64,000 nucleotides of DNA from the NCBI RefSeq assembly GCF_006345805.1, contig NC_042998.1, forward strand, positions 8,804,001 to 8,868,000, read 5' to 3'. The notes under the pieces were generated by a model. That model did no database searches. It saw nothing but the letters and a program-made list of their open reading frames with translations, and was not told where the DNA came from. Made by a program: the position numbers and the translations under genes. This document shows, piece after piece, positions 2,967-59,415 of this stretch; position 1 is the first letter of the stretch, and every line of letters begins with the position of its first letter. The stretch is from Octopus sinensis (Eukaryota).

Positions 2967-3014
2967 CTTCATAGTTTACCGGAACATATCCATGCTTGAG
3001 TACTTGACCATTCT
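2967..3014 (-). CDS. Ig-like receptor cytoplasmic mini-exon B2 ([16 protein letters not shown])
   Basis: 48 bp, phase 1-1, acceptor ctgtcttatttgtttctag homologous to that of B1, donor gtagga. Confidence 0.7.

Positions 3015-59415: not shown

Follow-up and report, generated by a model that had tools for sequence, protein, structure and literature searches.

A 64,000-nucleotide stretch of octopus DNA, here called the window (G000:C2:8804001-8868000, from a host genome of 2.72 Gb), raised the question of whether ten small exons scattered over it form a real gene and, if they do, which kind of protein this gene encodes. A sequence-only reading had joined the exons into a hidden receptor of about 350 residues, of the SIRP/B7 type and with a tyrosine-motif tail. 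The window is AT-rich and contains many microsatellites and retroelement remnants; intronic remnants lie at 35122-38541, 28063-29673, 8015-9467, 45703-46560 and 6126-6569. The intronic frames are presumably reverse-transcriptase-like and Penelope-type GIY-YIG-like, judged from their translations.

Gene model and the exon 3 frameshift

We recovered the exons by a splice-site scan combined with local searches. Ten exons were found, as had been claimed; they are on the minus strand, run from 59415 down to 2967 and sum to 1,050 nt, with GT-AG borders in all nine introns of the model (Table 1). The N terminus encoded by exon 1 is the same in the proteins P0001 and P0002, and an acceptor 3 nt before the exon 1 ATG implies a further 5' exon upstream. 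The V domain is encoded by a mini-exon and a main exon, and two exons make up each C domain. No model needs the candidate exons at donors 50412, 39861, 32285 and 31694, and they were discarded. Six further coding exons lie below the window, at about -1.7, -8.8, -11.4, -15.7, -22.1 and -35.1 kb. With the tail of isoform X1 the full-length protein therefore reaches about 449 amino acids, longer than had been proposed.

Table 1. The ten exons and the frameshift site, in window coordinates
Feature	Position	Strand	Content
Exon 1	59373..59415	-	Coding: carries the start Met and the greater part of the signal peptide
Exon 2	45182..45226	-	Remainder of the signal peptide; initial strand of Ig domain 1
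Exon 3	42303..42550	-	Main exon of Ig domain 1, V/I-type; NDT and NVT sequons
One-base shortfall (frameshift) in exon 3	42496..42497	-	Seen against the C4 copy and read contigs
Exon 4	32677..32774	-	C-type Ig domain 2, first half; matches P0005
Exon 5	25014..25173	-	Domain 2, second half; 15/160 nt differ from the C4 copy
Exon 6	19927..20024	-	Domain 3, first half; 10/98 nt differ from the C4 copy
Exon 7	16241..16376	-	Domain 3, second half; NSS, NYS and NVT sequons
Exon 8	13889..14011	-	One TM helix without charged residues; basic stop-transfer residues
Exon 9	10875..10925	-	Tail cassette with YNMM (YxxM); duplicated below the window
Exon 10	2967..3014	-	Tail cassette with YVPV and NYE tyrosines; donor at its end

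Isoforms X1 to X3 of Octopus sinensis LOC115232395, named "uncharacterized" at NCBI, are identical to the window exons. When exons 3 (from an internal Met) to 10 were joined, they gave a stop-free frame of 284 amino acids identical to the start of X1 (P0005). The gene is therefore annotated and was hidden only in part: the NCBI model is missing half of domain 1 as well as the signal peptide. The V domain falls under the Pfam cut-offs and the model lost its signal peptide to what is most likely a one-base assembly fault, so standard annotation misses the family. A chance arrangement is excluded, since the NCBI model is matched exactly, a sister copy and O. vulgaris have homologous exons, and two RNA-like runs give coverage that is confined to the exon and has spliced loose ends. 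The window locus is a real spliced octopus gene for an Ig-fold cell-surface protein with a tyrosine-rich tail.

The join is coherent from the internal Met onward but not as assembled from the true start, where a stop appears at codon 55. The cause is that exon 3 falls one base short of its counterpart in the copy on C4, to which it is otherwise identical. A reading of exon 3 as a single open frame from its acceptor was rejected, since its first 18 codons are out of frame compared to all relatives. We compared the read contigs of four runs over 41760-42740 (981 nt, the exon 3 region only). An extra base behind 42496 was present in the contigs of all four runs, and the insertion depths summed to the full depth. 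No contig of the four runs was without the inserted base at 42496, in a comparison in which rare variants are lost from the contigs and exon 3 is common to both copies. The base loss is most likely an assembly error, which is far likelier than a private null allele.

Two of the runs, X8 and X11, cover only 42303-42551, apart from repeats. We refer to them as RNA-like; X11 is RNA by guess and X8 was labelled DNA by guess, and a search of the public runs found none on record listed as RNA. Of their loose ends, each a two-contig consensus, those on one side look like exon 2 and those on the opposite side like exon 4. A window-type contig is present at the exon 2-exon 3 junction, and each RNA-like run has spliced contigs of the window-type exon 3. 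Two of the proposed junctions thus have transcript-type support, at the subfamily level; as only the exon 3 region was compared with reads, junctions 4 to 10 rest on the NCBI model.

Predicted ectodomain and cytoplasmic tail

To model the ectodomain we used AlphaFold2 on P0001, with a 45-row alignment; exons 2 to 4 of P0001 are those of the window apart from the indel. The mean pLDDT was 82.8, and domains 1 and 2 were mostly above 90, so that the proposed Ig fold was predicted for both. The gene encodes a single-pass type I membrane glycoprotein with two Ig domains predicted at high confidence and a likely degenerate third, consistent with the V-C-C-like layout read from the sequence. The sequons NGT, NDT, NVT, NSS and NYS were all present as claimed, together with a second NVT, and the NGT sequon spans the junction of exons 2 and 3. 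There is one hydrophobic TM segment, of 19 uncharged residues.

We compared the P0001 model with 48,161 chains. The ten best structural matches were without exception V+C Ig tandems, from receptors for recognition or adhesion. Butyrophilins (Z 13.8), nectin-3, CD200R/CD200, Neph1, PD-L1 (13.0), Rst and B7-H6 (12.9) tied at Z 12.9-13.8 and 9-13% identity, nectin-3, Neph1, Rst and SYG-1/2 lying at Z 12.7-13.5; the tandem alignments spanned 165-180 residues with an rmsd of 3.0-4.5. SIRP-gamma reached Z 12.0, aligned only through its residues 119-317, and CD58 reached 11.7. The full model of the O. vulgaris protein P0002, which has three membrane helices, matched the same structural classes at Z 9.6-10.4. 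Neighbours of the Atlas model were CADM1, nectin-3, sialoadhesin, a butyrophilin-like protein and NCAM (TM 0.52-0.60). Foldseek matches were all Ig chains, for both models mostly antibody light chains, and gave no family ranking. A homodimer prediction of domains 1 and 2, run with no controls, scored 0.00.

At the sequence level, Pfam I-set matched domain 1 weakly (E 0.048) and was found, below the cut-off, in three of 30 family rows (best E 0.011); V-set, C1-set and C2-set gave no match at the cut-off, and C2-set_3 appeared in one relative at E 0.21. Domain 1 is devoid of the conserved cysteines on strands B and F, and a CxxxC motif is invariant in all 30 family rows. Domain 2 retains the B and F cysteines, a second cysteine pair and a DGxTF-like loop, and has a cysteine in place of the C-strand tryptophan. 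Domain 3 is homologous to domain 2 (69-85 bits with a profile built from six C domains of the family), with its B-strand cysteine replaced by aspartate; it falls below pLDDT 50 in the P0002 model, and its last strand is 8 residues shorter in the window copy (exon 7) than in P0002. From these sequence comparisons, domain 3 is likely a degenerate copy of domain 2.

The proposed tyrosine-motif tail is present in its tyrosines but not in strict motifs: scanning three tails for ITIM, ITSM and ITAM ([ILVS]xYxx[ILV], TxYxx[VI]) gave no matches. The isoform X1 tail has six tyrosines, in YNMM (twice), YVPV (twice), YEET and YEGP. The YNMM and YVPVNYE cassettes lie on a tandemly duplicated exon pair, in blocks that are 97-99% identical, and the annotated isoforms X1 to X3 differ in their number of tail cassettes, as if the duplicated exons were alternatively used. 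YNMM is not conserved, as it is missing from the C4 copy and P0002, which have no tyrosine at the exon 9 position. An acidic tail exon occurs in six copies on C4 (39449623-39480533) and two on C2 (window -15.7 and -22.1 kb), and the last exon occurs twice on C4, which points to copy-number variation in the tail.

The sister copy on C4 and the octopod family

A second copy of the gene lies on C4. Its homology to C2 extends over about 107 kb, roughly the gene span, and stops close to the gene ends; a tandem array of units of about 153 bp (window coordinates 70933-73571, about 7-10 kb above the window) marks the upper end. Introns of the two copies differ at 405 of 41,304 sites (0.98%) and exons at 48 of 1,048 nt (4.6%; Fisher p 4e-17). 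The exonic differences are unevenly spread. Exons 5, 6, 8 and 9 differ at 45 of 432 nt (9-12% in these four exons; 14/123 in exon 8), and exons 2, 3, 4, 7 and 10 are identical in both copies, two of them with a 1-nt indel. The identical exons and the one 1-nt indel per copy may reflect local assembly collapse. The indel of the C4 copy, in its exon 7 (C4:39501156-39501295), cuts the NCBI model LOC115210431 to 264 amino acids, and is probably an assembly fault of the same kind as in exon 3.

Like P0002, the C4 copy has no exon 9 tyrosine and carries an additional exon that encodes two further membrane helices. By parsimony, with no outgroup found, the window copy would have lost two helices and gained YNMM. 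Three-helix members are the C4 copy, P0002, P0029 and P0030; the loci concerned are C4:39497934-39498164 and G000:C30:12.25 Mb. Since the helix number is odd, the tail stays inside whether one or three TM helices are present. An extra V exon (L003, C4:39572700-39572945) precedes the C4 gene on its upstream side, and the N-terminal extension of P0002 maps to the 3' end of this exon in a different frame; a lone C-domain exon is located at C4:39416532-39416627.

A second variant of domain 1 was detected in the reads of three of the four runs, at about 1:1 in the DNA run X2. It differs by 11 non-synonymous and 2 synonymous codons, most of them as in P0002, and the contig of the adjacent intron shows no difference. 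The changed residues lie in variable family columns (mean entropy 2.09 versus 1.29, p 0.001). Evaluating dN/dS, as the sequence-only reading had suggested, gave no significant excess over 1 (34 versus 6 codons, p 0.22; p 0.19 with the read variant), and synonymous sites are also raised (p 0.003). The pattern is one of old exon variants inside young or homogenised introns. Such variants with homogenised introns, or local assembly collapse, fit as well as positive selection does. The C2 and C4 copies may be either paralogs or alleles.

The genome was searched with two single proteins, each of which listed at least 80 V-exon matches. Of the 80 matches listed, C27 holds 37; another 30 are spread over 15 small contigs, some of which may be haplotigs, and 13 are elsewhere. 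A stop occurs in two of the 80. First-half exons of C domains were found at 9 places, about seven genes. A dense tandem cluster of V cassettes, on both strands, occupies C27:16.1-16.9 Mb (L005-L018, L073-L080). LOC115225115 has at least 16 annotated isoforms; those seen differ in the first V domain and in V number, and some share a TM exon. Combinatorial splicing is possible in this cluster.

A 30-row profile retrieved 29 proteins among 4,341 candidates, all from three Octopus species and, except for two fused models, devoid of functional names. Searched against 1.84 billion representatives, the profile gave 38 matches: 21 from Octopus, 2 from Argonauta, 3 from Haliotis, 1 from a bacterium, 4 unnamed and 7 without an organism look-up; the named matches included none from squid or cuttlefish. 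Every named octopod member is "uncharacterized" or "hypothetical". We discarded P0044, P0047, P0054, P0055 and P0058 as relatives, because they are long, repeat-rich proteins with summed chance matches.

Family layouts comprise one to six V domains followed by a TM segment and a short tail, V-C-TM, V-C-3TM and V-C-C-TM/3TM. The V-C-C pair is the only layout seen with a long tyrosine tail; other members have short tails with few tyrosines. A search with residues 20-305 of P0002 returned only P0002 and P0003 among proteins of 311-993 amino acids, a weak hint that the V-C-C layout may be confined to these species. In a V-domain tree built on few columns and with many open forks, the window-type domain groups with P0002 and L003 (100/98).

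Taken together, the gene belongs to a large unnamed octopod family whose exons diverge faster than its introns. The profile searches and the exon-over-intron divergence agree with the earlier view of a lineage-restricted, fast-diverging and undescribed family, and the V exons and tandem clusters supply paralogs of the kind that it had proposed to look for. No description of the family was found in the literature searched, supplements and subscription papers lying outside the search, and gene lists naming the loci may exist; no paper was found for six family LOC identifiers. PMC9258296 is unrelated to the octopod family as far as its accessible text goes.

Candidate functions and known systems

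On the evidence of fold, divergence and family, we lean towards the view that the gene product is a diversifying recognition receptor, immune or self/non-self, and we infer that the window gene may have an immune role. In such a receptor the outer domain 1 would have as its ligand a protein carried by another cell or by a microbe; it is the putative binding domain because the variant residues sit in the variable columns of the family. Once clustered by ligand, the receptors would become substrates of tyrosine kinases at YNMM and YVPVNYE, and the phosphorylated tail would recruit SH2 proteins (YxxM is a PI3K p85 site and YxxP an adaptor site). Alternative use of the duplicated tail exons could set the number of tyrosine cassettes, tuning the output. 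Host-pathogen or self/non-self pressure would maintain the long-lived divergent exon variants.

Against the receptor reading stands the use of the same fold by purely adhesive and neural proteins such as nectin and Neph/Rst, and so do the lack of strict ITIM/ITAM motifs, the non-conserved YNMM, the short tails of the other members seen, the low pLDDT of domain 3 and the non-significant excess of non-synonymous change. If the product were instead a molecule for cell adhesion or neural wiring, like nectin, Neph(IRM) or Dpr-DIP, with diversity serving as a cell identity code, this would explain why nectin-3, Neph1, Rst and SYG-1/2 tied with immune receptors and why CADM1, nectin-3 and NCAM neighbour the Atlas model. 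Wiring codes draw many isoforms from tandem cassettes, as the C27 cluster does with its tandem V cassettes and shared TM exon. However, wiring molecules are usually conserved between close species, whereas domains 1, 2 and 3 are only 83%, 78% and 70% identical to their O. vulgaris counterparts, with sister introns 1% apart, and no PDZ-type C terminus was found by pattern scan; we consider this alternative doubtful. Sexual selection on a gamete or mate recognition protein could likewise produce rapid exon divergence between close species and copies, and Ig-fold gamete proteins exist. The size and clustering of the family, its modular layouts and the tyrosine tail are more in keeping with somatic receptors, which makes a gamete role very improbable.

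It is also conceivable, if unlikely, that the window copy is no separate working gene, being either a null duplicate with a true frameshift or the second C4 allele placed on C2 by the assembly. The codon 55 stop as assembled and the near-identity of the introns to C4 are in line with this, and the five identical exons, among which each copy has one 1-nt indel, suggest local collapse; the 1:1 variants in one DNA run fit one heterozygous locus as well as two loci. Conversely, none of the four runs has a deletion contig, window-type exon 3 is spliced in the RNA-like runs, there is no N gap in 234 kb of C2, the homology ends near the gene ends, and the copies differ in exon content (the 2-TM exon and the tail duplications). 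If the copies were alleles, the receptor reading would still stand, and the polymorphism would be more striking.

The recognition-receptor reading can be set beside known systems. SIRP proteins have three Ig domains, one TM helix, tail tyrosines and paralogs differing in TM and tail; the octopus gene shares these features, its third Ig domain being a likely one. The V domain of SIRP has a canonical B-F disulfide, and its members carry an ITIM/ITSM tail or a charged TM residue for an ITAM adaptor. The octopus gene differs from SIRP in having no sequence homology, no ITIM/ITSM and no charged TM residue; a domain-1 profile gave two matches among PDB sequences (E 0.63 and 1.7), neither of them SIRP, and no vertebrate protein was among the named matches of two profile searches. 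B7, butyrophilin and CD200R, like nectin and Neph (IRM), have the same two-domain V-C fold with the B and F cysteines in domain 2. The octopus gene departs from them in domain 1, which has no B-F cysteines, in the cysteine that takes the place of the C-strand tryptophan in domain 2, in the absence of a Pfam V-set, C1-set or C2-set match at the cut-off and in the splitting of each domain over two exons. The proposed SIRP/B7 identity was not borne out, given structural ties at 9-13% identity, the lower rank of SIRP-gamma, the missing B-F cysteines and the lack of strict ITIM, ITSM or ITAM motifs.

Invertebrate systems offer parallels as well. According to the accessible parts of the reports on Hydractinia Alr, its members are, like the octopod family, clustered, lineage-specific IgSF membrane proteins (PMC9546547, PMC8282982). 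As in octopod domain 1, the Alr domain is V-like, without B-F cysteines and with family-specific disulfides (PMC9546547); further likenesses are divergent tails with tyrosine motifs and variation concentrated on exposed residues (PMC9546547, PMC8282982). The same text describes I-set and Fn3-like membrane-proximal domains and an ITAM or ITIM in many Alr tails (PMC9546547). In the octopus gene, domain 2 matches C-type Ig domains, domain 3 is homologous to domain 2, and strict ITAM/ITIM motifs are absent. Homophilic binding and allorecognition have been shown for Alr2 (PMC9546547, PMC8282982). No Alr protein was among the named profile-search matches, and we regard the resemblance as an analogy, not as homology. 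In Biomphalaria, the portions available on PTC2/GRC report clustered, hyperdiverse single-pass genes, no known domain in the PTC2 proteins and a tie to parasite resistance by association (PMC7494358). Old, highly divergent haplotypes and raised synonymous divergence are common to PTC2/GRC and the octopod family, which, unlike PTC2, has an Ig fold (PMC7494358). The abalone proteins P0059 (Haliotis cracherodii) and P0048 and P0056 (H. rufescens) have a Cys-less V-like domain with CxxxC and an F-strand tryptophan, and P0059 adds V-C repeats, a TM segment and a tyrosine tail. They score 7-15 bits per domain, with an hhalign probability of 33%, and are a weak lead to possible distant relatives.

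These observations raise the tentative possibility that a diversified Ig receptor system peculiar to octopods serves in the recognition of self/non-self or of pathogens, with at least 80 V exons, a combinatorial C27 cluster, a V-C-C signalling member, old variants that O. sinensis has in common with O. vulgaris and a switch between single- and triple-helix forms. The kind of system is already known; the family and its domain variant are new. If true, cephalopods would thereby have their first candidate family of allorecognition or variable immune receptors, possibly of molluscan ancestry. The family also adds another independent case of clustered hyperdiverse invertebrate surface receptors, beside Hydractinia Alr and snail PTC2, and it provides concrete genes for asking how cephalopods separate self from non-self or sense pathogens.
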